58,124 nt of DNA from Candidatus Eiseniibacteriota bacterium (GCA_030595835.1 JAUVLG010000004.1:1-58124); one strand, 5' to 3'; counted from the stretch's first letter, positions 2,577 to 57,944 are shown. Numbers and translations: made by a program. The notes: generated from the sequence alone by a model not told the origin.

Positions 2577-2865
2577 TGTCTGGGGCGAGCATAGCCGCGG
2601 AGGATCTCAGGCTCGAGGCCGAGGAGTTCCCGGCCTACGGGTCGTACAACATCGGTGGCGAGGATATCAGGGAGTCGTATTGCAGCTATGCGAGTGGAGG
2701 AATGGCCGTCGATGGACTGGACATCCCGAGTGAGTGGTTCAAGCTCAAGGTGTCGATCGCGAGCGGCGGCTGCTACAGTTCGAGAATGGGACTATCAGAG
2801 TGCGTACGATGACACCGGTGGGAGCAACAACCTGGGGCCGCATCAAGAGCATGTATAACAACTAG
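2567..2865 (+). pseudogene. decayed remnant of a CBM6/35-like secreted protein carrying the WGxIK tail
   Basis: Frame 2 reads ..RLEAEEFPAYGSYNIGGEDIRESYCSYASGGMAVDGLDIPSEWFKLKVSIASGGCY and then stops at 2812. Frame 1 (2734-2865) reads ..LQFENGTIRVRTMTPVGATTWGRIKSMYNN*. There is no signal peptide and no ATG/GTG start, and the only TTG sits inside the upstream hairpin. Confidence 0.4.
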
Positions 2866-2929
2866 TGGCCCGCCGTTTGTGCGGGCACGGCCGGACGCAC
2901 CCCCAACTACTCTCTAAAGAGGAGGGAGC

Positions 2930-4129
2930 ATGCGCCATCTCCTTCTGACGCTCGCCGTGCTTATGCTGGCGGTCGTCGCCGCTGCCGACGCCGCCGCGAC
3001 CGTGGCCCGTACCACGATCGGCGACGTCCCCCGAACGTACACACACTTCATGAACGCACAGGAAGCGGCCCTCTGCCGGGCGAACGTGGCGGCCGGGGGC
3101 CTTTCGGCGTACTTCTTCAATCCTGCCGTCATCACCGACCTCGAAGGCATCGCCGGTCAGGCTACAATGCGGGCGAACATGAAGTCCCGTAACTACCTGC
3201 CCGGTGGTGACGACGGCCTGGATGCGTCCAACGACGTTTTCCTCTTCTCGCAGGCCGTGGCGGCTAAGCGCACCGACATGTACGCGCTCGGGTTTGGCTA
3301 CTCCTGCCCGTCGTACAGGCGTCTGGAACTGGACGGCAGTCTGGACGGCGAACCGTACAAGGGGGCCGAGTTCAAAGGCAGCCTGAGGTTCTTCGAGGTC
3401 CTTGCGGCGGCGAGAATCGGCACGGACGCCCAGGGCTCGATCGGCATCGCCGCGGGGATAGCGAACCTGACCGAAAGCGCGAGTGAGCCGGGTCAGAGAA
3501 GGGCCGAGATGGACGGTATCGCGGCCTCGCTCGCCATCGGGATGACCTTCGATGCGATGGAGCGTCTGACGTTTGGTGTGGGCTACCGTTTCAGTACGAA
3601 GGTTGACGTCTCCGGCAGCTGGCACGCCGAGGTCGGGGAGCCCGACAGCACCGATACCGGTACCACGAGGACCGAGCCGGTTGTCGTGGCCGGTGTGCGC
3701 TTCACGGCGAGCGACAATTACATCCTCTACGCGAGCTACATCCACGAGGGATGGGAGGAGGCGCGGTCGACGTTCGCGGCCTACTACCCGACGGGCGACT
3801 GTGATGACTGCAACGAAGAGCACCGCTCGCGAGACGAGTTTGACAGCGCGCTCGGAACGGCGGCCGTCGGTGGGGAGGGCACGCTGATGGACGGGCGCGT
3901 CACCATTCGCGCCGGGTTCTCGATGCCGGTCGGGTCCGATTTCGACAACACGGACGAACCCGAGTACCGAGAGCTGGTGCCCGAGTACGCGGCCGGACTG
4001 GGCGGCACTCTGAGGTTCGAGGAATACTTGGTCGAGGCCGCCTTCGTCCGGGAGCAGTACGCCGATGGAGACGAGGGCGAACAGGTGGTCAACCACGGGA
4101 TCTACGTGACCGTTGGATACGAATTCTGA
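2930..4129 (+). CDS. FadL/OMPP1-like outer-membrane beta-barrel protein
   Basis: Strong RBS AAAGAGGAGGGAGC-ATG. Signal peptide MRHLLLTLAVLMLAVVAAADA. FadL-type N-terminal motif ..AAGGLSAYFFNPAVITDLEG. Alternating beta pattern with a C-terminal OMP signal VTVGYEF. Confidence 0.55.
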   Translation: MRHLLLTLAVLMLAVVAAADAAATVARTTIGDVPRTYTHFMNAQEAALCRANVAAGGLSAYFFNPAVITDLEGIAGQATMRANMKSRNYLPGGDDGLDASNDVFLFSQAVAAKRTDMYALGFGYSCPSYRRLELDGSLDGEPYKGAEFKGSLRFFEVLAAARIGTDAQGSIGIAAGIANLTESASEPGQRRAEMDGIAASLAIGMTFDAMERLTFGVGYRFSTKVDVSGSWHAEVGEPDSTDTGTTRTEPVVVAGVRFTASDNYILYASYIHEGWEEARSTFAAYYPTGDCDDCNEEHRSRDEFDSALGTAAVGGEGTLMDGRVTIRAGFSMPVGSDFDNTDEPEYRELVPEYAAGLGGTLRFEEYLVEAAFVREQYADGDEGEQVVNHGIYVTVGYEF

Positions 4130-4159
4130 CCGACGGCGCGTGCTGCGTGAGCGGGTGAC

Positions 4160-5233: not shown

Positions 5234-5258
5234 CTGAGCGCGCCCTCAGTCGCTTTCC

Positions 5259-5287
5259 TTGTGGTCGCTTGCATCCAGTGGTAGAAT
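5259..5287 (+). promoter_or_regulatory. sigma70-type promoter candidate
   Basis: TTGTGG-N17-TAGAAT with a TGG extension, about 125 nt upstream of the GTG at 5414. Confidence 0.45.
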
Positions 5288-5413
5288 GTCCTTGGGTGAC
5301 GCTCATGAACGTGAGCGGATTCCGGCGTGCTCGTCCGGCTGCGTCCCACACGCAGGTGGCGCACCCCGCGCTGTTTCGGACGCTCGCTGGCACATAGAGG
5401 AAGGAGGTTCGCT

Positions 5414-5896
5414 GTGAAAACAGCCTTCTTCGCTATCGTTGCGGCCGTCGTCATCATCGCCGCGCCCCCCGCGTGGGCACAGGAATGCAGTGAGGAGGTC
5501 GTGCTCGAAACGTTCGCCGGCACGATCGTCATGCACCACCGCGAGGCCCTCTTCAACTGCTGCGCCTATCTTGAGATCGAGGTGGAACACGACGCGTTCG
5601 AGGTCGGGATCTTCGAGTGGGAGATGTTTGGGGAGGAGGGTCCCTGCTACTGCATGTGCTGCTTCGCTGCGGAAGCGACCATCAGAGGGCTTGCGTCCGG
5701 GGACTACAACGTCAGTGTGTGGAAGGTCCACGACAACTTCGACGGCACGTGGACTCACGAGTTGATCGGGACCTGGATCGTCCCGGTGACCGGCCATTCC
5801 ACCGCGTCGGTCGAGACGTCATACGTCCCGTGCGTCAGCACGGGCATGGCGGAAGAACCGGACACCTGGAGCACCATCAAGGCACTCTTCCGGTAG
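5414..5896 (+). CDS. small secreted 8-Cys protein with WGxIK-type C-terminal tail (paralog 1)
   Basis: GTG start 6 nt after GAGGAAGGAGG. Signal peptide VKTAFFAIVAAVVIIAAPPAWA/QE. Conserved Cys pattern C..NCC..CxCxCCF..C. Ends EEPDTWSTIKALFR*. Confidence 0.7.
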   Translation: MKTAFFAIVAAVVIIAAPPAWAQECSEEVVLETFAGTIVMHHREALFNCCAYLEIEVEHDAFEVGIFEWEMFGEEGPCYCMCCFAAEATIRGLASGDYNVSVWKVHDNFDGTWTHELIGTWIVPVTGHSTASVETSYVPCVSTGMAEEPDTWSTIKALFR

Positions 5897-5942
5897 TGGG
5901 TAAGCCCGACTGTTCCACGGGATCCCAAAGGAGGTGGTCAGT

Positions 5943-6410
5943 ATGAGAGCCCACACCACCACCGCCGCGGTGCTGGTCGTGCTGTTCCTTGTCTCACTCG
6001 CGTCAGCGCAGACGTGCGACGAAGAGGTGTTCCTTACGACGTCGGACGGCACGATCGAGATTTCCCATCTACAGACCATGTACAACTGCTGCTGCGGGGT
6101 GGACAGCGAGGTGGTTCAGGACGGTTTCTGGATCGATGTCCACGAGTACGAGCGCCTCATCGGGGGCGGGTGCGATTGTCTGTGCTGTTTCGACATCGAG
6201 ATCGTGATCGCAGGGCTGGCCCCTGGTGACTACACTCTGAGCATCATCAAGCACACCGAGCACGGGGGCGTCGAACTGGTCGGGACATGGTTTGTCACCG
6301 TGACGGGGTCGTGTCCTCCTGGGTTTCTCACGACGTATGTGCCTTGCAGTGAGACGGGCATGGCGGATGACGAGACGACGTGGGGCATGATCAAGGCGCT
6401 CTACAGATGA
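5943..6410 (+). CDS. small secreted 8-Cys protein with WGxIK-type C-terminal tail (paralog 2)
   Basis: ATG at 5943 lies 8 nt after AAAGGAGG; the GTG at 5934 overlaps the RBS. Signal peptide ..AAVLVVLFLVSLASA/QT. Same Cys pattern as 5414-5896. Ends DDETTWGMIKALYR*. Confidence 0.75.
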   Translation: MRAHTTTAAVLVVLFLVSLASAQTCDEEVFLTTSDGTIEISHLQTMYNCCCGVDSEVVQDGFWIDVHEYERLIGGGCDCLCCFDIEIVIAGLAPGDYTLSIIKHTEHGGVELVGTWFVTVTGSCPPGFLTTYVPCSETGMADDETTWGMIKALYR

Positions 6411-7471
6411 TGACGGCCAGCGTCAGTGCTGTGGCGCTGATCGCTGTGCTGGCCGCGACGGCACCAGCAGTGACGCTTTCCGCCCGAGCACCTGAGAAGC
6501 CCGGCGGGGTTGCGGTCAGTCCGCCCTGCGGGGACCGCGTCGAGGGCGATACGATTGAGGAGTGCTGGACGATTCCATCGCTGCCCTTCTTCGACACTGG
6601 CAACACCTGCGCCTACGCCAACGACTACGATGAGGTTTGCCCCTACGCGGGCTCGACGGCGCCTGACGTTGTCTACGCCTACGAGCCCCTGTACGACATG
6701 TGCGTGAGCATCAGCCTCTGCGACTCGTACTACGACACGAAGGTCTACATCTACCAGGACGTGGTAGGCAACGTGCCGTGGCCCGACGGCTGCAACGACG
6801 ATAATTACGACTGCGTGGACCCCCCGGTCAACTACACGTCGTGGATTGATGAGATCACCCTGTTCGCGGGCCACACATACTACGTTGTCGTCGATGGCTA
6901 TGGCGGAGAGTGTGGCGACTACGTGCTCGAGGTAGAGGAGGTCGAGTGCACGCCCCCGTGCGACGTCATATGCGTCGGCGTGCCCGAGGGCGAGCCGACC
7001 TGTTACGACGGCTACGAGGACCACTACAACGGCGGCTGCAATTCAACGCCCCATTGTTTCTCGATCGTCTTCTCCAGCCCGGATCCCATCACCTACTGCG
7101 GCGAGAGCGGCGTGTACGAGTACAGCAACGGCGTTACATACAGGGACACGGATTGGTACATGTTCTCAGTGTGGGGCGAGCCCGTGCGCTTCAGCATAAC
7201 GGTCGAGGCCGAGTTCGGCGTGCTGTTCGGGTTCGTCGACGGTCTCTGCGACAATCCGTCATTCGTCAGCTACTCTACGACGCCTGAGTGCACGCCGCAC
7301 ACGATCACGGAGGAGCTGTCCTACGGCACCTACGCGATCTTCGTGTCCACCGATTCGTGGGAGCCGGAGTATGAGTGCGGCATCGAGTACTCGCTCACGA
7401 TCGAGGGATATTCGCCGTTTGTCCCTGTCGATGCCATGAGCTGGGGGAGGGTCAAAGCGCTCTATCAATGA
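6407..7471 (+). CDS. secreted Cys-rich protein with two PPC-like beta-sandwich modules and WGxIK-type tail
   Basis: ATGA overlap with the upstream stop. Signal peptide MMTASVSAVALIAVLAATAPA. FAGHTYYVVVDGYGGECGDYVLEV resembles the pre-peptidase C-terminal (PPC) fold signature. Ends DAMSWGRVKALYQ*. Confidence 0.65.
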   Translation: MMTASVSAVALIAVLAATAPAVTLSARAPEKPGGVAVSPPCGDRVEGDTIEECWTIPSLPFFDTGNTCAYANDYDEVCPYAGSTAPDVVYAYEPLYDMCVSISLCDSYYDTKVYIYQDVVGNVPWPDGCNDDNYDCVDPPVNYTSWIDEITLFAGHTYYVVVDGYGGECGDYVLEVEEVECTPPCDVICVGVPEGEPTCYDGYEDHYNGGCNSTPHCFSIVFSSPDPITYCGESGVYEYSNGVTYRDTDWYMFSVWGEPVRFSITVEAEFGVLFGFVDGLCDNPSFVSYSTTPECTPHTITEELSYGTYAIFVSTDSWEPEYECGIEYSLTIEGYSPFVPVDAMSWGRVKALYQ

Positions 7472-7587: not shown

Positions 7588-9171
7588 ATGAGACACACCC
7601 GCTTCCACGCGGTCGCGGCGCTCGCCGTCGCGGCCGCGCTTCTAGTATCCGGCTGTGGTCCGAGATACGACGTCGAAAACGTGCGCGCCCGCGCGGACGA
7701 GATGTCCGCACGCATCATGGAGGCCTATTACGACAGCGACGCGTACGGCCACGAACTGGACGTGGCAGGCATCATCGCCGAGTATCGCGACCTGGCCGAC
7801 CCGGGTCTCGTGCGTTTCGTCGGTTCGCTGAGGGACCGGGAGCAGGACCCGAGGAGGCGCAAGCAGCTCGACTTCCTGTTCTACGATCTGGTCAGCACCG
7901 CCGTGTGGCATGGCCAGGCGCGGTTCTACGACGAGATAGCGAACATTGAAGCGACCGGTCGGGTGACGGTCGGGGAGGACGAGTTCGCATATAGGGACCT
8001 CGGGATCGAGCTCTACAACGAGACCGACAGCGCGACCAGGAAGCGCTACTACCTGGCGCTCGGTGAGTTCGCGGTTGCCAGGACCAATCCGCTCAGAAAG
8101 GAACTCATCGACTCCACGCGTGAGAGGCTCAAGGGCTTCAGATTCAGCGACCTGGACGACTACGAAGCCGCCAGGCGGGGCATCGACTTCGACGCGTTCG
8201 AGGATGGCGTCGTCGCCTTCCTCGAAGAGACAAACGACATCTATCTCGACCTGACCAGCGAGGCCGCCCGCGAGGTTTTCGGCGTCGAGGTCACCGAGGT
8301 CGAGGACTACGATCGCGGTCGCCTCTTTAGAGGAGCGGAGTTCGACCAGTACTTCCCTGCCGGCGGCACCGTCGGCCTGCTGGAAGACGTGCTCCTGGGG
8401 ATGGGAATCGACCTGGGCAGTCTCCCGGCGGTCAGGATCGACGATGAGGACCGACCCGACAAGGAGCCACGGGCGGCTTCCTACGCGGTCGTCCCGGGCG
8501 AGGACGTGCGTATCCTGGTCAAGCCCGCCGGAGGCGTCGGCGACTACGAGAGCCTCTTCCACGAGATGGGCCACGCGCTCCACGACGCGTACATCGGAGT
8601 GGAGGAGTACGAGTTCCAGCGACTGGGTGACTACGGTACCACTGAAGCTTATGCGTACATCCTTGAGGACCTGCTGTCAGACGAGCGCTTCATCGAGGAG
8701 ACCGGACTGATAGAGGATGCGGACGTTTTGCGGCGCTTTCTGAGGAAGCAGCTTCTGAGCGACCTCGGCAGCGCTCGCTACTACGCCGGCCTCATGAGGT
8801 ACGAGCGGAGGCTGCACCGCGGCGAGCTGTCCGAAGAGGAACTCGTGGCTGCATACGGAGAGCTCATCGGCGAGTCGCGCCTGGTCCCGCTCGAGCATCC
8901 GGAGTTCGGGTATCTGGCGGACAACGAGGATTTCTATGGTGTCAACTACCTCGAGGCGTGGTTTCTCGCGGCGCAGCTAAGAGCCGCGCTCGGGGAGCGC
9001 TTCGGGGAGACGTGGTGGGCCGAGCCCGCGGCGGGGGAGTTCCTCAAGGAACTCTGGGAGTTCGGCGCCGAGCTGCCGCCCGAGGAGGTGGCGCAACGCA
9101 TCGGGTACGACGGGCTCGATTCCGCCTACTACATCAATGAGGTGAGAGCCGCCTACGCGGCATACAGGTAG
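7588..9171 (+). CDS. lipoprotein zinc metallopeptidase, M3 (oligoendopeptidase F)-like
   Basis: Lipobox AALLVSG/C. HEMGHALHD zinc motif with a downstream TTEAYAYILE Glu, as in the M3 family. Confidence 0.55.
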   Translation: MRHTRFHAVAALAVAAALLVSGCGPRYDVENVRARADEMSARIMEAYYDSDAYGHELDVAGIIAEYRDLADPGLVRFVGSLRDREQDPRRRKQLDFLFYDLVSTAVWHGQARFYDEIANIEATGRVTVGEDEFAYRDLGIELYNETDSATRKRYYLALGEFAVARTNPLRKELIDSTRERLKGFRFSDLDDYEAARRGIDFDAFEDGVVAFLEETNDIYLDLTSEAAREVFGVEVTEVEDYDRGRLFRGAEFDQYFPAGGTVGLLEDVLLGMGIDLGSLPAVRIDDEDRPDKEPRAASYAVVPGEDVRILVKPAGGVGDYESLFHEMGHALHDAYIGVEEYEFQRLGDYGTTEAYAYILEDLLSDERFIEETGLIEDADVLRRFLRKQLLSDLGSARYYAGLMRYERRLHRGELSEEELVAAYGELIGESRLVPLEHPEFGYLADNEDFYGVNYLEAWFLAAQLRAALGERFGETWWAEPAAGEFLKELWEFGAELPPEEVAQRIGYDGLDSAYYINEVRAAYAAYR

Positions 9172-17719: not shown

Positions 17720-17809
17720 CTCAATATCACCCCTGCTAGGAAGAATGCCCTTTTGGTCGTCACGGCTCGGGTCGCGACGCGCCTTCCAGCCCCGATGGAG
17801 GATATCTGC

Positions 17810-27095: not shown

Positions 27096-27183
27096 AGGGG
27101 AATCCTCACGAGCCACCGGCAGCTACGCCACTGCCGGATCGAATCCGCGTTTCGTCCGTTTGGGAACTTCCACCGTAACTGAA

Positions 27184-42377: not shown

Positions 42378-43361
42378 CTAGAGCGCGACTCCGAGCGAGA
42401 AGCGAAGCGTGTCGGCGAGGCGGCCGAACAGGTAGGCGGCGTCGAGGGTCATCACGGTCGCCCCGGCTGGGAAGGTGGCCCCGGCTCCAATTGAGAACTC
42501 ATCAGATTCGTCCTCGGACAGGGTGGTGACGTAGCCGCCACGCAGACAAGCCACGCCGAATAGCGTTAGCTCGGCCCCGGCCCTGACGACACCGTTCGTA
42601 TCACGGTGGAGGGCCTTGTCCAGGTCGACCCCCAGAAGAACGCGGTCGTGAGGCTTCATGGCGACGCCTATCACGAGGGCCGCGGGCACGTTCTCTCCGT
42701 AGGAGCCTGCCGCGGACGAATCCCAGTTCAGCATGCTGATGACGTCACGTCCGGTCACACCCAGCGTGGTTGAATCCGTAAGCGGTATCAGCGCGCCGAC
42801 GTCGAGTCCGAGGCCCAGTGCGCTACCGGTGACCTGTTCTTCCATGCTCTCGTTGTTCCCATACGAGGCCCATCGGGTCCGAAGCGTCGCGCCGAAGCCG
42901 GCGGCTCGGTCGGGCGCCCAGGGCAGCACCTTGAACTCCCTGGCGCCGCCGATCAGCACCGACGTCTCTGACAGCACATCGTCGCCGGAGTAGAGCAGTC
43001 CGACTCCGAGCGTGTAGTCGCCCAATTGCTGAAGCCCGGCGCCGGCCGAGTAGGGTACGAGCCCCATCTGATCGCTGTACGCGACCATGAACTCCCTGGA
43101 GCTTCCTGCCTGTCCCAATCCGGCCGGGTTCCAGAAGAGCGATGACGCTCCCTCTACGGAAGCCACAACCGCCCCACCCATTCCCATTCCGCGCGCTCCG
43201 ATCCCGACGTCGACGAACGCGCCCGGTATGTCCGACAGTTCTTCGCCGTGCGCCGTTTCCGTGCTCAACGACACGGCGGCCAGCACGGACAGGGCGACCG
43301 CCGCAGCGAACAGCCCGCGCGTCAATCCGCGCCGCTCGGCAGTCAGGGTTCTTGCTTTCAT
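42378..43361 (-). CDS. PorV/PorQ (FadL-like) family outer-membrane protein
   Basis: ATG at 43361 after GGAGG. Signal peptide. GIGARGMGMGGAVVASVEGASSLFWNPAGLG is the PorV/FadL N-terminal signature. Ends LRFSLGVAL. Confidence 0.65.
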   Translation of the reverse strand: MKARTLTAERRGLTRGLFAAAVALSVLAAVSLSTETAHGEELSDIPGAFVDVGIGARGMGMGGAVVASVEGASSLFWNPAGLGQAGSSREFMVAYSDQMGLVPYSAGAGLQQLGDYTLGVGLLYSGDDVLSETSVLIGGAREFKVLPWAPDRAAGFGATLRTRWASYGNNESMEEQVTGSALGLGLDVGALIPLTDSTTLGVTGRDVISMLNWDSSAAGSYGENVPAALVIGVAMKPHDRVLLGVDLDKALHRDTNGVVRAGAELTLFGVACLRGGYVTTLSEDESDEFSIGAGATFPAGATVMTLDAAYLFGRLADTLRFSLGVAL

Positions 43362-43430
43362 GTTGCCTCCGCTATCATCGGAATCGCGCCTCACCATCAA
43401 CGGGGTGCGGCGTCACGTCACAGCCCGACG

Positions 43431-46400: not shown

Positions 46401-48476
46401 CGGCACTACAATAAGCTCGATGCTCAGATAGGACTCACCGGACTCGACGTTCACTTGGTGCGGAGCCGACGGCGCCAGACCGTCGCTCTCGGCGACCAGC
46501 TCGTACGTGTCCGGAGGCAGCAGGAGGACGAACTCACCGAACGCGTTCGTCGTCGTTTCGAACGGCTCGCCTGCCGGAGGGACCGCAACAACGCGCGCGT
46601 CGGAGTAGTTGACTCGTCCGTCGGTGACTCTGCCCATCACGGCCGAACTGGTCGTCGTGAGAACGATGGGCGGTTCGACCGCCGTGTTGTCGCCCGGGTC
46701 GACGACGATCCCTCTTCCGTCGCTGGGAACGAACCCGCTCTTCTCGGCGGTGAGCGTCCATTCGCCCGGTGCCAGCTCGAGGGAGAAGTAACCACTCGCA
46801 TTCGTGAACGCCGATGACGTTCCGAACGAACTCTGCGCAAGCACTGTGGCGCCGACGATCGGGCTGCCGGCCTCGTTCATGACGTTGCCCGTGGCGGTAC
46901 CGGGTGTTCCTGCGAGCGTGAGTGGGTCCGCGAGTTCGATGTAGTCATTCGCGTGGAGTTCCACGCCGATGGGTGTTGACGGCGCGTACCCCGCCTTCTC
47001 CGCGTGGACCTCCCACACGCCGGCGCTCGCCTGCATGACGAAGTTCCCCGTGGGGTCGCTCTTCGTCTCGAGAACCAGAGCGCCCGAGATCGCCACGACG
47101 TCGGCGTCGAATATGGGCGCACCTGCTTCGTCCTCTACGACGCCGCGCATCCTGGCGGAAGCCTTCCTCATGGTGATCGTGACGTACGGGTTCTCGTTGG
47201 CCACGATGACGGCGGTGGCGGTTGTGTCGACGTAGTCCGGCTTGGACGCGTGGAATGCGTACTCGCCCGGGATCAGCGCGACGTCTCTTCTGCCCAGAGT
47301 GTCTGTCACCGCGGGGAGGACGTTGACGCCACCCGTCAGGAACTCCATTTCGACCAGGACGTTTGGAAGTGGATTCCGATCGTCCTTCCTGGTCCTGATG
47401 AGCGCGGTTCCCGTCTCGGTCGCGTACTCGAAGCTCCTCGTTACGGACGCGACGCCGCTTCCGGACGAATCCAGCGCGACCACTCTCCAGCGGTAGTTGC
47501 CTGAGACCAGGAAACTGCCCAGATGCACCTGCGCAGACGGTGTGGGAGCGGGGCCGTCCCATACCAGGAAGCTGGCCTCTGCCTGGCTCCACTCGCGGTT
47601 CTCAGAGATGTAGACGTGATATCCGGATGCACCGTCCACCGGTGTCCAGCTGAAGTCCAGGTGCTCCTCTGTGACGAGCAGGCTGTCCGGTGGGAACGTG
47701 AGTTCCGGAGGCTCCATAGATACGGTGACGTCGACGTAGAACGACGACAGACCGGCGCCGGCCGTCGATGTCAGGATCGGGTTGTTGCCGAAGTTGTTGA
47801 AGACGAGCCAGTGGTAGCTGAAGCCACTCATGAGAGGAGGGCTCGTGCCGTTCGAGGCGACGAAGTACCCGGACGGATCCGGAGATCCGTACTGTATGAG
47901 GGTCCCGCTCGTGATGGCCTGCCATATGATGTTGGCGCCGCCGACGTGCAGCTCTCCATTCTCCTCCGTGACGCTGAGCTCGTGGTCCGACAGGAGCAGG
48001 TGGTAGTACGGGACACCGTCGACCGCGTCCCATTGGAATGTCGTGGTCGTCTCGTAGATCGTGGACCCGTTGGTCGGGGTCGTGGGGGAGGGGAAGACGG
48101 GCGAATCGAGAATCAGAACGAACTCGTCCGAAGTCTCTCCGCCCCCAAGTTCGCTCACGACGCAGTAGTAAATGCCCCAGGACATCCCCTCGTCGAGAGG
48201 CGTGAAAACGAGCGAGCCCCAGCCCTCGGCTGCAGTCTCATTGGTGTATACGCCGGGAGCCCGCCCGTAGCTCAGGTTGCAGTGGGTTGTTTCCGCCCAG
48301 GTGATGGTGACCTCTTCGTACAGCTGCACGAGGCCGTCGGGAGTCGAAACCAACGTAATGCCCGCCGACGCCGGGGCGGCGAGCGCGAGCACCACGACCA
48401 TCGTCGCGATGGCCGCCCGCACGCGCTGGGACCTCCGATGCCCATCCGGAAGAAGCCGTCGTTCGCTGAGTCTCAT
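43431..48476 (-). CDS. giant secreted repeat protein: FN3/Ig-like N-terminal modules, about a dozen CarboxypepD_reg-like repeats, FlgD-like / T9SS-type C-terminal domain
   Basis: AAGGAG RBS. Signal peptide ..MVVVLALAAPASA. W..V.GA.GYHVY-type modules. Repeated G.V.D..G.P..GA.V..(Gly-rich)..G.Y units. The last ~90 aa are AEPNPFAP..VTVRIYNMAGQFVREL..IDWDGLTDSGELARNGRYVVEV. Confidence 0.85.
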   Translation of the reverse strand: MRLSERRLLPDGHRRSQRVRAAIATMVVVLALAAPASAGITLVSTPDGLVQLYEEVTITWAETTHCNLSYGRAPGVYTNETAAEGWGSLVFTPLDEGMSWGIYYCVVSELGGGETSDEFVLILDSPVFPSPTTPTNGSTIYETTTTFQWDAVDGVPYYHLLLSDHELSVTEENGELHVGGANIIWQAITSGTLIQYGSPDPSGYFVASNGTSPPLMSGFSYHWLVFNNFGNNPILTSTAGAGLSSFYVDVTVSMEPPELTFPPDSLLVTEEHLDFSWTPVDGASGYHVYISENREWSQAEASFLVWDGPAPTPSAQVHLGSFLVSGNYRWRVVALDSSGSGVASVTRSFEYATETGTALIRTRKDDRNPLPNVLVEMEFLTGGVNVLPAVTDTLGRRDVALIPGEYAFHASKPDYVDTTATAVIVANENPYVTITMRKASARMRGVVEDEAGAPIFDADVVAISGALVLETKSDPTGNFVMQASAGVWEVHAEKAGYAPSTPIGVELHANDYIELADPLTLAGTPGTATGNVMNEAGSPIVGATVLAQSSFGTSSAFTNASGYFSLELAPGEWTLTAEKSGFVPSDGRGIVVDPGDNTAVEPPIVLTTTSSAVMGRVTDGRVNYSDARVVAVPPAGEPFETTTNAFGEFVLLLPPDTYELVAESDGLAPSAPHQVNVESGESYLSIELIVVPADCELAGVVVDGTDPVAGALVTSGGTSATTSAAGEFSLDVPAGLHELTALKDGHLSGAPLQVAAHPGETLEGLELEITGGASAISGHALSDGEPVGRAVVTALSEATEVVAVADENGSYVVHVEAGEWTVTARKDGFAPSSSEVVAVAAGQSAHGIDPELAPEYATIEGSVTDSREVLRRSLVLLYRNGEAEAAYRTSSDSDGHYCLRVAPGAAYVAVAAAHGHGSAEVEIAALAIGEERVVDMHLPARESAIAGTVTGADGLPLAGALVRAETGGEAAATANAYGDYELYVHAGLHDVSVSQAGYEPRLHADVFAVADETTELNSNLLDVFALLHGTVVNSVSSEPVSGVVITAVWGGGLSAVTGPCGEYELASVVPGEITVVTTKRGFVSGETALTLAEHEIRDHDIHLVRLTGSIAGQVTDSSTGLPVAGVSVRAKLGDDIASAAMTGADGRYALSGLYPGTDYNVHASRAGYSSDSENPRTNITPDAVDIDFTLRECAGVITGFVLDADDGEPLPGASVTANNGLGHFGTTTSGADGLFTIDGLAEIGAYDVSTSLYGYLEAVAYDVAPGGEALTLEMPRNFARLIGTLTPQGAGVELGETVIAATNIAFAEHSQMASPDALGAYEITELRPGSYVLSVSGGTHLGTPAQVSIAVGEGELVSGVDFTVERATIERIDVAGPDEIEAGHAATFSGSVLAQGERLVNVDLDWWVAPDCAASVARATGELSISAGYIGELTVSAREPSSGEVGRAEATVYVTVTPGEGASAGDSLGMTLHIEPGAVTETKSIYLSHEFLPDVRRYSKGHIVEARSYRLKPNGMSFEEYHHPTLTVPDNNRGGGLVRWDREVLDWAEVEAEHVGSDLEAEIPALAEFAVRARSGPLGVSDVRAEPNPFAPANGCVTIYYELSSDSAREPFVTVRIYNMAGQFVRELISNGSQGKGPASIDWDGLTDSGELARNGRYVVEVSAEDTSGTETALGTVVLVK

Positions 48477-48551
48477 GTATTCGTCTCCTTGTCGTTCGTC
48501 GCCGACCGTGGCCACGCGGCGGTGGGGTCACGGTCGGCATGGCCGAGCGTT

Positions 48552-49982
48552 CTAGAACCCGTATTCCAATGAGACGCGCAGGACCTGAAGCGGCACTGCT
48601 AGTACCATCGTGTCCAGTCTCAGATTCTGGCCGATGTCGATGCCCAGTCCCAGATTGGCGAGCGGGATCAGGATGTCCTCGCCGGCGGACCCTCCCTCGA
48701 GGGTGTCGCCCATCAGCTTGCCGCGAATGACGCCGCCTCCGAGACGAACGCCGCTGAAGTCGAGCTCGAGGCCGAAGCCATCTGTGACGTCTACGCCCTC
48801 GGACACGTCCTGATACTCGAAGCCGAACGCCCCCACAAAGGTACGATACTCGAGGGTGGCCAGCATGAACGGCGCGTGCAGCGACACCGCCAGGCCCGCG
48901 TACGACGGGAGCAGGAGCGTCACCGGGTCGTCCTCGACCGTCTCCGTTCGCTCGGTCAGGGTCGGCTGCGAGTTCAGTATCTGGTCCGCATCGAATTCGC
49001 CGTCGATCAGGCCGGGCATGACGTTCGAGATGGTCGTGAGGGAGCCCTCGAGCTTCAGCGCCGGCATGCTCGCGTAGGACGCGTCGACCGTCACAAGCTT
49101 GATCGGGTGCCACGAGGCCCCGATGTTCCAGCCGAAAGCGTCACCTTCGTAGAGCCCGTGCATCGTCATCCCGAGTTCGTTGTACCAGGGATCGCTCGGA
49201 TCGTTGAATGCGTACTCCTGGCCGCCGTAGCTGACGATGCCGTCTGCTCTAACGCTGCCGGAGGCCGCCGCGCTCGCGTGGTAGCGGCTGACGGACAGAC
49301 CAAGTGCCACGTTCGGGTAGACGTCGGAGGCAGCTGCCAGCGTGGTACGGCTCACCCGGAAGGCGAGATCGGCCGCGGCGTCCGCCATGCATCGCATCTG
49401 GATATCGATCAGGTCATCGCCCTCGTCTTTGCTCGTGTGGCCGAACGCCTCTATCCCGGTGTCGACCATCTTGAGTGCCACTGACATGGGTTCCTCGATG
49501 GCCGCGGCGACGACCGTGCGGCCGAGCCTGACTCCGACGACGCCCGATATCACGCCCCCCTGCTGTCCCACCGCCGCGTCGAACGTCGGGTACGCGGGCT
49601 CGAAGCCGGGGCCGGTGAAGTCGCTGACTGCGTCGTCCAGCGCGTCTGCGGCGATGCTCTCGAAGTCCAGGAAGTCGGAGGCCATGGTTCCGAAGGGAGG
49701 GAGGATGTCCATAACAACTGCATTGGTGGGGATATGGGCGAGCCCCGCCGGGTTTCCGCTGACACAGCCCAATCCAGCTCTGACAGTGCTCACGGGCGTT
49801 CCCAGCCCATCGGGGCGGCTGCCCGCGCCGTAGAGGAAGCCGAGCGACATACGAAAGGAGGACGTCAGACTCCCGCCTTCCAGGATCTCGAGGGTAGCGT
49901 CGTCTCCGTCGGCAGAAGCCCCAGTGCAGAGCGCGCAGAGGATTGCAGTTCCGAGCACGACGACCACAGCATATGACCTCAT
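48552..49982 (-). CDS. FadL-like outer-membrane beta-barrel protein
   Basis: Signal peptide MRSYAVVVVLGTAILCALCTGASA. GCVSGNPAGLAHIP motif. OMP C-terminal signal VSLEYGF. Confidence 0.6.
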   Translation of the reverse strand: MRSYAVVVVLGTAILCALCTGASADGDDATLEILEGGSLTSSFRMSLGFLYGAGSRPDGLGTPVSTVRAGLGCVSGNPAGLAHIPTNAVVMDILPPFGTMASDFLDFESIAADALDDAVSDFTGPGFEPAYPTFDAAVGQQGGVISGVVGVRLGRTVVAAAIEEPMSVALKMVDTGIEAFGHTSKDEGDDLIDIQMRCMADAAADLAFRVSRTTLAAASDVYPNVALGLSVSRYHASAAASGSVRADGIVSYGGQEYAFNDPSDPWYNELGMTMHGLYEGDAFGWNIGASWHPIKLVTVDASYASMPALKLEGSLTTISNVMPGLIDGEFDADQILNSQPTLTERTETVEDDPVTLLLPSYAGLAVSLHAPFMLATLEYRTFVGAFGFEYQDVSEGVDVTDGFGLELDFSGVRLGGGVIRGKLMGDTLEGGSAGEDILIPLANLGLGIDIGQNLRLDTMVLAVPLQVLRVSLEYGF

Positions 49983-50292
49983 GAGTCCTGTCCCCTCGTG
50001 GTAAATGCGTGTAGTACAGCTTGTTACAGGTGACGCCCCGCCCGATGCTCCACCGGATATCCCAGTTGCTGCCGCTTGTCTTGCATGACTCATGCCACAC
50101 ACTGCGCTGATTGGCATCCATAAATACCGACCGCTTGGGGACTTCGCTGACCGCGCCCTCGGTGGGAGAGACTCTGGCGGCGCACGCGTGGCCCGTGCGG
50201 CGAGCCGCGTCCTGCCCGTCCAGTGCGCGAAGACACGGCGGATGACCACCGTCAAGAGGATGAGCGGCCACGGGGGGGCGGGGCGTCGTTCG

Positions 50293-53084: not shown

Positions 53085-53089
53085 TCGGC

Positions 53090-53237: not shown

Positions 53238-53313
<76 letters not shown>

Positions 53314-53331
53314 GAATCGCGTCGAGACAGG

Positions 53332-53359: not shown

Positions 53360-53536
53360 GCGCTCAGTGGCTCGTTCGCGGCGTTCCCCCTTGCCGCACG
53401 GGCGCCGGATCGCCGGTTTCTGCTGTGGGGGTTGCGACCTCGTCCACCTCCCGGCATCAAGTTCACATGCTAAGAGGAATGTTGCTCAGCTCTCCGCACG
53501 GGCCCGTGCACTTTCTGGACAAAAGGAGCTGACGCA

Positions 53537-53565
53537 TTGACACACTCGGATAATTGTGCTATTGT
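53537..53565 (+). promoter_or_regulatory. sigma70-type promoter (twin of 54804)
   Basis: gcaTTGACA-N17-TATTGT with a TGc extension. About 205-nt leader to the ATG at 53778. Confidence 0.55.
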
Positions 53566-53777
53566 TGCTGCGAAGTTGACAGTCGTCGCAGGGCGTCTTC
53601 AACACATGGCAAGTGGTCGATTGCTCGCGCGTGGGCATGCGCGTCGCGCGGACGAGCGGCCCTCGGGTGAGTTTATCGTGGGTGTGCGTCGCCCCTCGCA
53701 GCGGTGCAGGGAGTGGTGTGTATCCGCACGTTCCCATAACGGCGCCCGCATGGGGCGTCAAGGAAAGGGGAAGTGAG

Positions 53778-54602
53778 ATGAAGAGGTTTGCGAGCATCCT
53801 GCTGGCGGGCGTTATGCTGTTCGCGATCGCGGGAGCGGCCCTGGGTAACATTGGCTGGGCTGGCAACATCTGGCCAGTCAACGGCACGAGCTACACGTCG
53901 AACGACAACATCGGCGTGTATGTGCAGGTCTGGAAGGACGGCTGCACTGGCGAGACCAGCGGACCATGTGCTGATATCAGCGCGACGCTCTTCTACCGCT
54001 GCACGGGCGACCCCACGTTCACGTCCGTGCCGATGCCGTTCTTTGGGTTCGCCGGCAACAACGACGAGTTCAGCGCCACTATCCCGAACACGCACGGCTG
54101 CACCGAGGTCGAGTTTTACGTTGAGGTCGTTGACGCCGAGGACAACGAGACACTGTATCCTCAGGACCAGAATGGCAACGCGCCGAACTTCTTCCTGCCG
54201 ATTACCGCGGTGACGTCGCAGGACGTTCTTGTCACCTTCCAGATCTGCATCCCGGAAGGTTCGGCCGGAGACGTCTGTGTGACCGGTAGCGCCCCTGAGC
54301 TCACTGGCTGGAGCCAGCCCGGCGTTCTGATGGCGCAGCCCTGCCCAGCGGTGAGCCCCAATCTCTACGACATCACCGTGACATTCCTGGCCGGCTCGAA
54401 CCCCTTCGTTCAGTACAAGTACCAGAAGGACGACTGTGCGACGTGGGACTGCGATCCGAACCATGAGTTCGTGATCGACGATTCCGGTCCGATGCAGACT
54501 CTGGCGTTGGACACGTGGTGCTGGGGCACGCCTGATTGCCCGGCCTGCGGGAGCCCGGTCGAGGAGACCACCTGGGGCACCGTCAAGGCGCTTTACAGGT
54601 AA
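53778..54602 (+). CDS. secreted non-catalytic protein: N-terminal beta-sandwich + CBM20-like starch-binding module + WGxIK tail
   Basis: Signal peptide MKRFASILLAGVMLFAIAGAALG. VLVTFQIC..GDVCVTGSAPELTGWS..LYDITVTFLAGSNPFVQYKYQKDDCATWDCDPNHEF fits the CBM20 pattern. Ends CPACGSPVEETTWGTVKALYR*. Confidence 0.7.
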   Translation: MKRFASILLAGVMLFAIAGAALGNIGWAGNIWPVNGTSYTSNDNIGVYVQVWKDGCTGETSGPCADISATLFYRCTGDPTFTSVPMPFFGFAGNNDEFSATIPNTHGCTEVEFYVEVVDAEDNETLYPQDQNGNAPNFFLPITAVTSQDVLVTFQICIPEGSAGDVCVTGSAPELTGWSQPGVLMAQPCPAVSPNLYDITVTFLAGSNPFVQYKYQKDDCATWDCDPNHEFVIDDSGPMQTLALDTWCWGTPDCPACGSPVEETTWGTVKALYR

Positions 54603-54803
54603 TCTGGATCAGATCGCGCCGCCGGGCATAGAGCCCGATGGGCGGTCATACTGAGCAGTGGGACGGAGCGGCCTCCGGACGGGGGCCGCTCCTCATGTAC
54701 GGTCCCGGGGTGCGAGGCGGCCCCGCGATCTTGCTCGCATCAGATGGTGTGTGCAGAGGAACGGCGACGCTTGATCCCCCAGGCACAGGGCCGCCTCGCA
54801 GCA

Positions 54804-54832
54804 TTGACATCCGCACTGAATTGTGGTATTGT
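54804..54832 (+). promoter_or_regulatory. sigma70-type promoter (twin of 53537)
   Basis: gcaTTGACA-N17-TATTGT with a TGg extension. About 230-nt leader to the ATG at 55070. Confidence 0.55.
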
Positions 54833-55069
54833 GTCCGCTGGCCAAACACATCCGACTGGTGTCAGCTGAGTATCTTCTGCACTGGCTGGCCCTGGAGTTG
54901 CTATTGGGTTGGGGTACGCGCGCTTCGGTGAAAGGAAGCGTTGCTCAAGGGAGTATTCCGGTATCGGAATGGTAACGGTGGCCGCCCGTGTGGAGGGTGG
55001 CCCGGGTCTCAAAGCGGAGTTCCCCGCGAGTGCCTTCGGCCCGCGCAGGGAACCTGAGAGGAGAGGAAG

Positions 55070-56080
55070 ATGAGACTCATTGCAGCGATAGTGATCGCGC
55101 TTGTGATCCCGGCCTACGCACTTGCGGGCCCGAGCATCGTTGGTAGCATGCAGGGCTGGGACCCGGCCGATCCGGCCTACGATCTTGCGGTCAACGGCAA
55201 CGGTGTCTACGTGCTGACGACGAGCCTGCTCGCCGGCTTCTACGAGTACAAGGTCACGGAGACCGATGCCTGGGACGGCAATGACTGGCCCGGTACGAAC
55301 CAGAGCTTCACGCTTGCGGGCGATGACGACGTCACGTGGTTCGTCAACCTGGGCGCCACGGCCGGCTTGAAGGAGGGCGACGAGTACGTCTTCCACGGCA
55401 TGAATCCCCCGATCGTCGTGGGCGATATGCAGAGCGAGCTCGGCGGCAGCGACTGGGACCCGTTCGACACGGTCAACAGCGTGATGTCCGACCCCGACCT
55501 CGACGACGTCTGGGAACTCACGGTCGTCATCGCGCCCGAGGGCGACTACCAGTGCAAGGTCGTGCTGAACAACAACTGGGACCAGAGCACCGGCGACAAC
55601 GTGTCGTTCCACTCCGACGGCGTGACTCCCGTCACCTTCACGTACGACATGTCGAACAACACGACGACCATCTCGTCGCAGGTCGTGACGCAGCAGGATG
55701 TGCTTGTCACGTTCACCATGTGTCTGCCCGACACCGTCGACAGCTTCTTCGACGTGTGCGTCACCGGCAGTCACCCGTCCCTGACCAACTGGGGATTCGG
55801 TATCGTGATGGGTCAGCCCTGCCCGACCATTCAGGCGAAGCTCTGGTCCGTGGATATTCTGTTCCCGGCGGGCAGTGACCCGTTCGTCGAGTACAAGTAT
55901 AAGAAGGACGACTGCCAGACGTGGGAGAGCACGTGGAACCACAGCTTCGACATCGACGACTCGGCGCCGACGCAGGTTCTGGCGGCGGACGTCTGGGAGT
56001 ACCTGGGGACCGAGTGCCCGACCTGTGCGAGCCCCGTCGAGGACACGAGCTGGGGCACCATCAAGTCGATATACAAGTAG
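55070..56080 (+). CDS. secreted non-catalytic protein: two CBM-like beta-sandwich modules + CBM20-like module + WGxIK tail
   Basis: GAGAGGAGAGGAAG RBS. Signal peptide MRLIAAIVIALVIPAYALA. IVGSMQGWDPADP..GFYEYKV..W and VLNNNWDQS modules. VLVTFTMC..VCVTGSHPSLTNWG..FVEYKYKKDDCQTWE is CBM20-like. Ends CPTCASPVEDTSWGTIKSIYK*. Confidence 0.75.
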   Translation: MRLIAAIVIALVIPAYALAGPSIVGSMQGWDPADPAYDLAVNGNGVYVLTTSLLAGFYEYKVTETDAWDGNDWPGTNQSFTLAGDDDVTWFVNLGATAGLKEGDEYVFHGMNPPIVVGDMQSELGGSDWDPFDTVNSVMSDPDLDDVWELTVVIAPEGDYQCKVVLNNNWDQSTGDNVSFHSDGVTPVTFTYDMSNNTTTISSQVVTQQDVLVTFTMCLPDTVDSFFDVCVTGSHPSLTNWGFGIVMGQPCPTIQAKLWSVDILFPAGSDPFVEYKYKKDDCQTWESTWNHSFDIDDSAPTQVLAADVWEYLGTECPTCASPVEDTSWGTIKSIYK

Positions 56081-56112
56081 CTGGGGCTTGACCATTCTGC
56101 AGTGAAGTAGTG

Positions 56113-56147
56113 CGCAGAGCCCCGGCGGCAGGCGTCGGGGCTCTGCG
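56113..56147 (+). terminator. terminator-like hairpin
   Basis: CGCAGAGCCCCG-N11-CGGGGCTCTGCG followed by TGTT, 33 nt after the stop at 56080. Confidence 0.5.
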
Positions 56148-56237
56148 TGTTCAGCGAACAGCAACACGCGGGGCCCTGGAGAGCGGCCTCTGGTGACTGG
56201 ACGCAGTACTCCTCGATAGGGGAGAAGGAGGTAGAAC

Positions 56238-57944
56238 ATGAAGCTCTTTGCAGCGACCATGGTTCTGGCCATGCTGCTTGTTCCCGCGGCCGCTCTGGCC
56301 GGCCCGAGCATCGTCGGCAACTTCCAGTACTGGGACCCGGCGGACCCGGCGTATGATCTCACGCTCAACGCCAACGGTGTCTACGAGCTGACGATCTCGG
56401 CCGGCGACTCGCTCAACGTGTATAAGGTTACGGAGACGGACGTTTGGGACGGCAACGACTTCCCCTCGGACCAGTCGTTCACACCCGGCACGCCTCAGAG
56501 CGTGACGTTCCACGTCAACCTGGGCGCGGTGCCCGGCACCAAGCAGGGCGACGAGTACGTCTTCCACAGCCTGAACCCACCCATTGTTTGTGGAACCATC
56601 CAGGGCGCGCTCGGCGGCAGCAACTGGGATGCGGGGGACACGAGCACGACCGTTATGTCCGACGGTGACGGTGACGACGTGTGGGAGTTCAGTTCCGTCA
56701 TCACCGCGGGCAGCTACGAGTTCAAGATCGTTCTCAACAACAACTGGGACCAGAACACGTCTCCGGCGGGGAACATACCGTTCGGCTCGGACGGCGTGAA
56801 TCCGGTGACGATCAAGTACTACATGGCGACCAACACGACCGAGGTCGTCACGGCCGCTGCTCCAGCAGTGATCAGCGCTCCCATCGACTACGATGGGACC
56901 GCGGCCGGTCTCCTGTTCGTGCAGTTCTCGAAGGACGTCGAGCAGATCACGGCCGAGACCGAGGCCAACTACGTTATCACGGGAGGTCCGGGCGGGTCCT
57001 ACACGGTCGCGACGGCCACACGCGACGGGTCCGACGCGAGCCGCGTGCACCTCGACCTGGCCACGGCCCTCACGGAGGGCTACGACTACACGGTGACGGT
57101 GACCGGTGTCACCGACCTCGCCGGGACTCCGATCGACCCGTCGGCCAACACGGCCTGCTTCTATCTCCACAGGGTCGATCTCGAGATCAACATGCATATG
57201 TTCATCACCGCGAACGGCGTTCCGACGAGTCTGCACATCCAGGGCGACACGCACCCCCTCACGTGGGACCAGTGCGGCGGCGCCGAGACGTTCGACGGTG
57301 ATGCAGACTCCACGTATGTCGTGACCGAGTACTTCACGATGCACTACACCTGTGGCGCCAACGCCGAGTCGACGCTGGTCAAGTACAAGTACGTCGTCGA
57401 CTGCGCGACCTGGGAAGGCGATTTCGAGTTCGGTCACTTCGTGACGCTCGATCCAAACGCCGCGAGCCAGACCATGAACGTCTGGTGGGAGGACGTAGCT
57501 CCGGTCGACAACATCACGTGCGACGTGGGTGTGCTCTTCCAGGTCCACAACTCGCCCGCGTGCGCCGGCGGTCTGTTCGTCCGCGGAACCGAGCTGCCGC
57601 TCGATTGGTCGACGGGCGTTGAGCTGCTCGACGACGGCACTGGCGGTGACGTCACATCCGGTGACGACATCTTCAGCGCACAGGTCGTGTTCCCGACCGG
57701 CACATACAAGTTCCTGGAGTACAAGTACTTCTGCGCCGATGCAGGTACGACCGGTGTCTACGAGTGCGACGTGCTTCCGAACAGGAACCTCACGCTCGAC
57801 GACGTCAACGGCTGCATGGCGGTCCGTGAGGGCCCGATGGAGCTGGTGGACCTCTGGAACTGGTGCGAGCCCGTGACGGGCATGGGCCAGAACGTCCAGC
57901 AGAAGACGTGGGGTGAGATCAAGCACATATACAGGGCCAGGTAG
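56238..57944 (+). CDS. secreted non-catalytic protein: two CBM-like modules + SbsA/Big_5-like Ig domain + two CBM20-like modules + WGxIK tail
   Basis: GGAGAAGGAGG RBS. Signal peptide MKLFAATMVLAMLLVPAAALA. The first ~200 aa are paralogous to 55070-56080, also at the DNA level. FVQFSKDV..ANYVITGG..YTVTVTGVTDLAGTPI is Ig-like. LVKYKYVVDCATWEGD and FLEYKYFC..NRNLTLDD modules. Ends QQKTWGEIKHIYRAR*. Confidence 0.75.
   Translation: MKLFAATMVLAMLLVPAAALAGPSIVGNFQYWDPADPAYDLTLNANGVYELTISAGDSLNVYKVTETDVWDGNDFPSDQSFTPGTPQSVTFHVNLGAVPGTKQGDEYVFHSLNPPIVCGTIQGALGGSNWDAGDTSTTVMSDGDGDDVWEFSSVITAGSYEFKIVLNNNWDQNTSPAGNIPFGSDGVNPVTIKYYMATNTTEVVTAAAPAVISAPIDYDGTAAGLLFVQFSKDVEQITAETEANYVITGGPGGSYTVATATRDGSDASRVHLDLATALTEGYDYTVTVTGVTDLAGTPIDPSANTACFYLHRVDLEINMHMFITANGVPTSLHIQGDTHPLTWDQCGGAETFDGDADSTYVVTEYFTMHYTCGANAESTLVKYKYVVDCATWEGDFEFGHFVTLDPNAASQTMNVWWEDVAPVDNITCDVGVLFQVHNSPACAGGLFVRGTELPLDWSTGVELLDDGTGGDVTSGDDIFSAQVVFPTGTYKFLEYKYFCADAGTTGVYECDVLPNRNLTLDDVNGCMAVREGPMELVDLWNWCEPVTGMGQNVQQKTWGEIKHIYRAR

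Follow-up and report, generated by a model that had tools for sequence, protein, structure and literature searches.

A short C-terminal peptide recurs on otherwise unrelated exported proteins encoded in a 58,124-nt stretch of DNA from a Candidatus Eiseniibacteriota bacterium (GCA_030595835.1, JAUVLG010000004.1:1-58124), referred to below as the window. This peptide, hereafter the tag, is conserved at the protein level, holds a terminal position, goes together with protein export, is portable across folds and phyla and is exchanged for another anchor on homologous passengers. The full unit comprises about 17 residues, (C)-x-[ST]-P-V-E-x-x-[ST]-W-G-x-[IV]-K-A-L-Y-R. With a confidence that falls a little short of even, we favour the view that it is a portable docking or address peptide for Sec-exported proteins in Candidatus Eisenbacteria and allied Fibrobacteres-Chlorobi-Bacteroidetes (FCB)-type phyla.

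The tag and its anatomy

The original prediction had listed eight copies of the motif [ST]W[GS].[IVM]K[AHS][LIM][YF][RKQN], each close to a stop codon. This was reproduced by a six-frame scan of the whole window, which returned exactly eight matches, in frames whose stops end at 2865, 5896, 6410, 7471, 24321 (minus strand), 54602, 56080 and 57944. In all eight, 0-2 residues separate the last motif position from the stop codon. A looser pattern, W[GS]..K..[YF], retrieved the same eight sites and no others, and residue shuffles of the six frames gave on average 0.0 strict matches, 0.15 loose ones and 0.003 loose ones lying no more than three residues from a stop. At the DNA level, the corresponding pattern matched three times in the window as against 0.00 times in 100 dinucleotide shuffles. 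Since the copies differ in their codons, as had been pointed out, the motif is maintained at the protein level, and a DNA repeat or mobile element was rejected as its source.

Seven of the copies belong to intact open reading frames (ORFs; genes A to G, Table 1), all of which have the Sec-type N-termini ascribed to them at the outset; in the AlphaFold models of the F and G proteins these appear as helices of low confidence, which is what signal peptides would be expected to give. Four unrelated groups of passengers can be told apart, namely the paralogs A and B, protein C, protein D, and proteins E, F and G with X25 and/or CBM20 modules. The claim of unrelated architectures thus stands, except that the 'PPC-like' assignment of C was not reproduced, this protein having no Pfam match. 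The seven tagged proteins, compared with two in the window that carry a type IX secretion system (T9SS) C-terminal domain (CTD), make up a large share of the exported proteins other than barrels.

When tags are aligned on the Trp, conservation extends upstream, with P at -8, [VTS] at -7, P at -6 (50%), V at -5 (51%) and E at -4 (53%), and 47% of tags have a Cys at one of positions -9 to -11. Positions -4 to -11 lay outside the search pattern, so that their conservation was not imposed by the search. The motif as first described is a genuine terminal signature, but the conserved unit is longer, at about 17 residues, and includes the upstream [ST]-P-V-E. The invariant residues are K, W and G, closely followed by Y, and an E-x-[ST]-[ST] element is conserved; the final residue is Arg in 88% of tags, under a scan pattern that for most copies allowed only R, K, Q or N at this position. 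Eight or nine residues follow the Trp without any hydrophobic stretch, in agreement with the earlier statement that the tag has neither a transmembrane (TM) helix nor an Arg cluster.

From a 53-sequence alignment, AlphaFold modelled F with a mean predicted local distance difference test score (pLDDT) of 86.5; the tail forms two helices, P-V-E-D at 322-325 and W-G-T-I-K-S-I-Y at 328-335, with pLDDT 66-70. The model of G, based on 48 sequences and with a mean pLDDT of 83.2, shows a linker at 545-549 with pLDDT below 50 that leads to helices at 549-552 and 558-567 with pLDDT of about 55. DSSP assigned no β-strand in either tail. With low to moderate confidence, these models suggest that the tail is a tethered, flexible peptide with helical propensity. 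A helical-wheel projection places W, I/V, L and Y on one face; hydrophobic moments do not discriminate between helix and strand for the tag. Of the amphipathic helix originally proposed, the short helix over WGxIKxxY is thus modelled, but its amphipathicity is statistically undistinctive.

No Pfam or NCBIfam model matched the tail in the seven window proteins, in eight isolated tails (E ≤ 10) or in 127 carriers from other loci, so that the tag lies outside the curated sorting-signal models, as foreseen. A search of Protein Data Bank sequences with the tail profile gave chance-level matches only (E ≥ 0.69), and a literature search found no description of the tag. Among homologs of F, a 213-aa X25 family (P0094, P0097, P0098, P0102, P0106, P0107 and P0109) ends in [ILF]-S-[QGE]-[VI]-K-[AST]-[SLI]-[YF] and a stop, a degenerate relative of the tag that lacks both W-G and the terminal Arg. 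Judging from these sequences, the tag may have Φ-x-x-[IV]-K-x-Φ-[YF] as its core and may belong to a wider family than is counted here.

Distribution, carriers and exchange with the T9SS domain

A degenerate DNA pattern, [ST]WGx[IV]KA[LIM]Y[RKQN] followed by a stop codon, was run on one genome per GTDB species and returned at least 120 loci from at least 85 species-level metagenome-assembled genomes (MAGs), produced by many different projects. Locus-based counts here and below refer to the 120 loci among the matches listed, with neighbourhoods of about 8 kb, all of them from MAGs. Candidatus Eisenbacteria account for about 33 of these loci, Krumholzibacteriota and Latescibacteria for about nine each, uncultured Fibrobacteraceae for about six, Effluviviaceae and Gemmatimonadota for two each and Coatesbacteria for one, the remaining loci bearing the unnamed label 'bacterium'; L022 and L105 come from close relatives of the window organism, in line with an Eisenbacteria-type bacterium, and NCBI names of F orthologs agree with this. 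Complete or near-complete MAGs with the tag include OY970173.1, OZ244210.1, CP070633.1 and CAVXKA01. The supposed restriction of the tag to one lineage is not borne out by this spread over at least six candidate or FCB-type phyla.

Translated in six frames, these loci amount to 1.63 million residues and contain 173 genuine tags as against seven random loose matches; 168 of the tags end no more than four residues from the stop, and the other five have extensions of 5-9 residues. A 30-position hidden Markov model (HMM) of the tail, searched at E ≤ 0.001 against 1.84 billion protein cluster representatives, matched at least 332 clusters, a lower bound because the cut-off lies just under the 37.3 bits of the weakest match listed. 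In 142 of the 147 best HMM matches the tag ends within five residues of the C-terminus. Homologue searches with tail-only alignments gave only 27 and 11 candidates, and no census was drawn from them. One match from the library, P0179 (247 aa), combines a terminal tag-like sequence with a DnaB-helicase-like N-terminus and lacks a signal peptide; chance or a chimeric ORF is the probable explanation.

The library search also brought up copies in other positions. A second copy directly follows the signal peptide in P0125, P0131, P0134 and P0184; lipoproteins built of two or three NTF2-like modules carry the motif after each module (P0132, P0147, P0148, P0151, P0158, P0214 and P0218); and P0122 and P0142 end in three to five tandem units spaced about 19 residues apart. 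Non-terminal copies keep E-x-[ST]-[ST]-W-G-x-[IV]-K-x-[LF]-[YF], often without the final Arg. By HMM score the N-proximal copies equal the terminal ones, and the internal copies are somewhat lower. Among the 793 ORFs of the listed loci there was no internal copy. The C-terminal position asserted in the original prediction is accordingly an overwhelming rule, but not an absolute requirement, given these rare N-proximal, internal and tandem copies.

By a crude rule, a signal-peptide-like N-terminus was found in 115 of 127 complete carriers from the loci and in 74 of 86 full-length carriers from the library; lipoboxes occur in a minority of carriers. Tag carriers are small: their median length is 255 aa, compared with 797 aa for T9SS-CTD carriers in the same loci. 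Their Pfam domains include beta-helix, lamin-tail domain (LTD), PMP repeats, NHL, PD40, FG-GAP, MAM, CBM20 and X25, and the Pfam search of the carriers found no family common to all. NCBIfam matches comprise choice-of-anchor W, X and J domains, the ScyF-type 'PEP-CTERM' NHL protein, rhombosortase- and myxosortase-dependent M36 peptidases, the PEP-CTERM flocculation protein PepA and the GlyGly-type exonuclease ExeM. Choice-of-anchor and sortase-dependent passenger families are defined by the C-terminal sorting signal that follows them. In the source annotations, carriers are either 'hypothetical' or named after the passenger domain.

The tag is kept in homologs of C (L010, L027, P0003, P0004 and P0008), in orthologs of E (P0116-P0119) and in orthologs of F and G from other Eisenbacteria. 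More distant X25 homologs (P0043, P0089, P0091, P0095 and P0120), some of them from Cloacimonadota, carry a T9SS type A sorting domain instead. From the signal peptide up to a common Cys-Pro, residues 1-317 of F align with residues 1-306 of P0089 at 41% identity (E 2e-73); beyond this point F continues with its 19-aa tag and P0089 with a 94-aa T9SS type A CTD (NYPNPFNP...KMLLIK). Likewise, six tag-bearing proteins in the loci share their passenger with the repeats of the CTD-bearing protein L019_1. This exchange of anchors indicates that the tag occupies the structural and evolutionary slot of a surface-sorting signal. The proposal of a sorting or anchoring tag thus gains from the link to export, from this slot and from the exchange with P0089, while its lineage specificity is not borne out and its barrel partner (see below) is unsupported.

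The two FlgD_ig (T9SS-like) tails of about 80 aa noted earlier in the window were confirmed (Table 1), and 38 FlgD_ig/T9SS-type CTD proteins are encoded in the 120 loci. Tag and CTD genes are adjacent 22 times, 20 of them on the same strand, in a sample that is centred on tag genes. The CTD models TIGR04183, PF18962 and PF13860 match both CTD proteins of the window, yet none of them matched any tail. In the same genomes the CTD ends in [RK]-K-Φ-V-L-L-[KR] and the tag in I-K-A-L-Y-R, each directly before the stop; this resemblance concerns character alone, with a shift of one residue, and the stretch is too short for a statistical test.

Genes and neighbourhoods in the window

Table 1. Positions of tagged genes, tag units and related features (window coordinates unless a locus is named)
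Feature	Position	Strand	Remarks
Pseudogene remnant bearing the tag	2567-2865	+	middle of the protein deleted, frame-shifted
Remnant, N-terminal part	2567-2812	+	one frame
Remnant, tag	2809-2862	+	other frame; TPVGATTWGRIKSMYNN
Gene A	5327-5896	+	small Cys-rich exported protein, paralog of B; no Pfam/NCBIfam match; true start probably near 5390-5417, directly before signal peptide ...KTAFFAIVAAVVIIAAPPAWA
Gene A, tag unit	5843-5893	+	STGMAEEPDTWSTIKALFR
Gene B	5934-6410	+	paralog of A; signal peptide MRAHTTTAAVLVVLFLVSLASA
Gene B, tag unit	6357-6407	+	ETGMADDETTWGMIKALYR
Gene C	6380-7471	+	Cys-rich exported protein without known domain; likely start ATG 6407
Gene C, tag unit	7418-7468	+	SPFVPVDAMSWGRVKALYQ
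Gene D	24321-25097	-	exported protein without known domain (six-frame scan, Pfam search)
Gene D, tag unit	24324-24374	-	EGTGLQNEMSWGRMKHLFR
T9SS-type cargo gene	25122-27116	-	exported; Exo_endo_phos, choice-of-anchor D and FlgD_ig/T9SS-type CTD of about 80 aa ending ...RKLVLLR
PorV/PorQ-family barrel gene	42378-43400	-	next to the 1694-aa T9SS-type cargo; NF033709 79.8 bits (cut-off 90)
T9SS-type cargo gene	43431-48515	-	1694 aa; 11 CarboxypepD_reg repeats, FlgD_ig/T9SS-type CTD ending ...TVVLVK
Gene E	53613-54602	+	CBM20; likely start ATG 53778 (MKRFASILL...)
Gene E, tag unit	54549-54599	+	CGSPVEETTWGTVKALYR
Gene F	55070-56080	+	X25 and CBM20 starch-binding modules (domain search, AlphaFold)
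Gene F, tag unit	56027-56077	+	CASPVEDTSWGTIKSIYK
Gene G	56238-57944	+	X25, Big_5, choice-of-anchor X and CBM-like domains
Gene G, tag unit	57885-57941	+	GQNVQQKTWGEIKHIYRAR
Intact remnant homologs, L105	about 5990-6790	-	
Intact remnant homologs, L103	2476-3700	-	two tandem copies

At 6405-6412 (AGATGATGA), gene B ends in a stop codon that shares nucleotides with the likely ATG of gene C, which indicates tight coupling of the tagged genes A, B and C in one operon. Downstream of them lies an M3-like lipoprotein gene (7588-9171), found in the same position in L105; as a tag-processing enzyme this lipoprotein was set aside, its conservation being limited to that syntenic relative. Gene D is located directly downstream of the T9SS-type cargo gene at 25122-27116, on the same strand. 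A contig search for a wider context of the window placed D on a 1-kb Logan contig only and found no record of F.

By structure comparison, the fold of F resembles CBM20, the X25 module of the Ruminococcus amylosome scaffoldin Sca5, and SusF. By analogy with such proteins, F-type starch binders would make sense only at the cell surface. The window also encodes a secreted GH13 alpha-amylase with CBM48/X25 (17753-20248) in addition to the non-catalytic X25/CBM20 proteins E, F and G (53613-57944). This arrangement suggests a starch-capture system comparable to SusE/F/G, in which the tag would replace the lipid anchors.

The eighth copy had been described as a remnant, and it is indeed a deleted and frame-shifted version of a gene that is intact in the syntenic relatives L105 and L103, where it is flanked by TonB-receptor-like and FadL-like genes. 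The gene order, from a TonB-dependent-receptor-like gene (Plug domain) through one or more small tagged proteins to a FadL-like barrel, is kept at 37-4129 in the window, 4810-7999 in L105 and 1243-6432 in L103. From its gene content, the module resembles an uptake system, in which the tagged protein could be a surface-bound ligand binder. The intact homologs have an in-frame TGA at a conserved site (...GWGFG-TGA-GPF...), and a GC-rich hairpin, of energy unexceptional for GC-rich sequence, starts 15-20 nt downstream of it. An Rfam search of L103 and L105 for a selenocysteine insertion sequence (SECIS) element gave no match. These homologs are a candidate family of secreted, tag-bearing selenoproteins; in the window remnant the TGA site has gone along with the middle part.

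Three FadL/PorV-like barrels of the window had been put forward as partners of the tag. Those at 2930-4129 and 48552-50255 have sub-threshold FadL-like matches; the third, at 42378-43400, lies directly downstream of the cargo gene 43431-48515, an arrangement that recalls pairs of a T9SS cargo and a dedicated barrel. The window barrels end in ...YEF, ...YGF or ...VAL. By tblastn, none of the three recurs beside tag genes in the listed loci, the lone exception being the barrel at 2930, which is present in L105 and L103. With recurrence limited to these two syntenic relatives, a role of the barrels as partners is unsupported. All-against-all clustering of the 793 ORFs gave one large cluster held together by the T9SS-type CTD, and the other recurrent neighbours are generic, namely sigma factors, sigma-54 activators and radical SAM proteins.

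Possible roles of the tag

The tag is of a known kind, that of C-terminal sorting and anchoring signals, and differs from them in architecture, being neither a tripartite tail with a TM helix nor a β-sandwich. Like the T9SS type A CTD (TIGR04183/PF18962, FlgD_ig-like), it is a C-terminal label without a TM helix on Sec-exported proteins of FCB bacteria, and it takes an equivalent slot on homologous passengers. The two labels occur together in genomes and often in gene clusters, and their endings, with a Lys, then hydrophobic residues, then a basic residue, are similar in character. The CTD, however, is an Ig-like β-sandwich of 70-100 aa with several conserved motifs, whereas the tag consists of about 17 residues, predicted to form a linker and a helix, occurs N-proximally, internally and in tandem as well, and sits on carriers about three times smaller. 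With the signals of the LPXTG/sortase, PEP-CTERM/exosortase, GlyGly-CTERM/rhombosortase and MYXO-CTERM/myxosortase systems it has in common that a short C-terminal signature marks unrelated exported proteins, down to the same passengers (choice-of-anchor, ScyF-like NHL and M36 peptidases); its P-V-E recalls their signature motif, and a Cys is often nearby. Unlike these signals, it has no TM helix and no basic cluster, its Cys is not invariant, and nothing suggests cleavage. The tails lack the succession of motif, TM helix and basic cluster, they gave no NCBIfam sorting-signal match at E ≤ 10, and the 8-kb surroundings of the listed tag loci contain no recurrent gene for a sortase, exosortase, rhombosortase or myxosortase.

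The terminal helices of PBP5/PBP6 from E. coli and the membrane-targeting sequences of MinD and FtsA are likewise short and transplantable, with a hydrophobic face and basic flanks, but their conservation is physicochemical and not one of sequence; the near-invariance of the tag across phyla implies a specific partner. Dockerin-cohesin pairs and SLH, GW and choline-binding repeats are portable, occur singly or in tandem on diverse enzymes and binders, and tether proteins to a receptor at the cell surface. In contrast to the tag, to which they show no sequence similarity, they are folded domains or repeats of 20-70 aa from known families; a dockerin would show a duplicated Ca-binding segment of about 70 aa, and no Pfam dockerin match was obtained on any tail of this 17-aa unit. 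Nor does the tag look like the β-signal of the BAM complex, with an aromatic residue, usually Phe or Trp, at the end of the last barrel strand, since 88% of tags end in Arg and the passengers (CBM20, X25, NHL, beta-helix) are soluble.

A portable and near-invariant peptide on a linker, devoid of a TM helix or fold of its own, occasionally present in several copies and found at either end of the mature protein, is best accommodated by a docking peptide. Such a peptide would consist of a flexible linker, often following a Cys, then [ST]-P-V-E-x-x and a two-turn helix, [ST]-W-G-x-[IV]-K-A-L-Y-R. Carriers would cross the inner membrane through Sec, a minority of them as lipoproteins, whereupon the tethered peptide would be bound non-covalently by a conserved putative receptor of the envelope. 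We infer that small binding proteins and enzymes, such as the X25/CBM20 binders E, F and G, would in this way be retained at, or delivered to, the outer membrane or the cell surface. The tag would thus fulfil the role that the T9SS CTD or PEP-CTERM-type anchors have on homologous passengers elsewhere. The N-proximal, internal and tandem copies fit a binding peptide whose copy number raises avidity, and they argue against a mechanism that needs a free C-terminus.

Several points weigh against docking. Clustering of the neighbours in the listed loci yielded no recurrent candidate for a receptor or processing enzyme. The modelled helix has a pLDDT of only 54-70, and permuted sequences reach hydrophobic moments not significantly lower than its own (p about 0.18). 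The extreme C-terminus holds more than 95% of copies, and 88% end in Arg and a stop under the scan pattern described above, a bias that could mean that a free C-terminus matters after all; the internal copies, mostly from a single lipoprotein family, could be relics of fusions or part of the fold of that family.

Among the alternatives, a minimal T9SS or T9SS-like signal comes next, although we consider it rather unlikely. The tag would then replace the CTD of about 80 aa, would be read by PorV or by the Sov/SprA translocon, and would translocate and possibly attach small cargoes. This would agree with the restriction of the tag to FCB-type lineages rich in FlgD_ig/T9SS-type CTD proteins, with the PorV/PorQ-family barrel in the window, with the frequent adjacency of tag and CTD genes on one strand, with the presence of either label on homologous passengers, with the resemblance of the two ends, and with the partition by size between tag and CTD carriers. 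Published work describes the motif at the extreme C-terminus of the CTD, which includes a conserved Lys, as essential and locates the signal of HBP35 within its last 22 residues (PMC11285876). However, the Ig-like β-sandwich architecture of the CTD is reported there to be essential as well (PMC11285876), and the tag has none; the CTD models miss the tail, and AlphaFold predicts a helix and not a β-strand. N-proximal, internal and tandem copies are also ill-suited to a signal that a translocon reads at the C-terminus. Alternatively, the tag may be a generic amphipathic anchor lying in the plane of a membrane leaflet, as in PBP5/PBP6 or MinD/FtsA, which would dispense with a receptor. The predicted helix, its face of W, I/V, L and Y with K and R on the flanks, the terminal position and the lack of a TM segment would suit such an anchor. 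It is nevertheless improbable, for a helix of only 9-10 residues with an unexceptional hydrophobic moment is a poor candidate, the near-invariance of W, G, K, Y, R and P-V-E far exceeds what lipid binding needs, and some carriers are lipoproteins already.

We attach an equally small probability to a site of covalent attachment or modification, in which the Lys, or the Ser/Thr pair after the acidic residue, would by analogy serve as substrate of an envelope enzyme (an L,D-transpeptidase as for Lpp, or O-glycosylation). The invariant K, W and G, the nearly invariant Y and the conserved E-x-[ST]-[ST] would be understandable in such a site, which would also work internally and N-proximally, and K-x-x-Y-R loosely resembles the terminus of Lpp, ...K-Y-R-K. 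Against this, the terminal residue is Arg and not the C-terminal Lys of the Lpp type, the invariant Lys lying five residues from the end; the Bacteroidota sequon D-[ST]-[AILVMT] is not matched, and no enzyme gene recurs near tag genes in the listed loci. Finally, the tag might be a by-product without function, arising from DNA repeats, from annotation or assembly artefacts or from common descent of the C-termini of one family. A/B and E/F/G are indeed groups of paralogs, and all data come from MAGs, but the copies differ in their codons, shuffled sequences contain no match, the motif sits on PD40, NHL, beta-helix, LTD, CBM20, X25, FG-GAP and unknown folds, and it comes from at least 85 MAGs of many projects. 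Together with the conservation upstream of the search pattern and the library-wide search, these observations effectively refute an artefact, for which the chance is negligible.

We would give equal weight for and against the broader proposition that uncultured FCB-type phyla, among them Eisenbacteria, Krumholzibacteriota, Latescibacteria and their relatives, possess a hitherto unrecognised, receptor-based addressing system in which PVE-x2-[ST]WGx[IV]KALYR suffices to bring a large part of the small exported proteome to the envelope, by docking or sorting, in parallel to the T9SS or feeding into it. The tag would then represent a new class of sorting signal, lacking a TM anchor as well as a folded domain. 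To our knowledge, it was through each of LPXTG, PEP-CTERM, the T9SS CTD and their like that a dedicated envelope machine came to be discovered. C-terminal sorting signals also serve to predict surface proteomes, and the tag marks hundreds of protein clusters, now annotated as 'hypothetical', in phyla without cultured members; its recognition would improve the prediction of protein localization in these lineages. As it replaces the T9SS CTD on homologous proteins, it bears on the minimal information required for T9SS-type targeting. The tag further provides a handle, as peptide bait or in phylogenetic profiling, for finding the receptor or pathway concerned, and it could yield a very short, transplantable tag for surface display.

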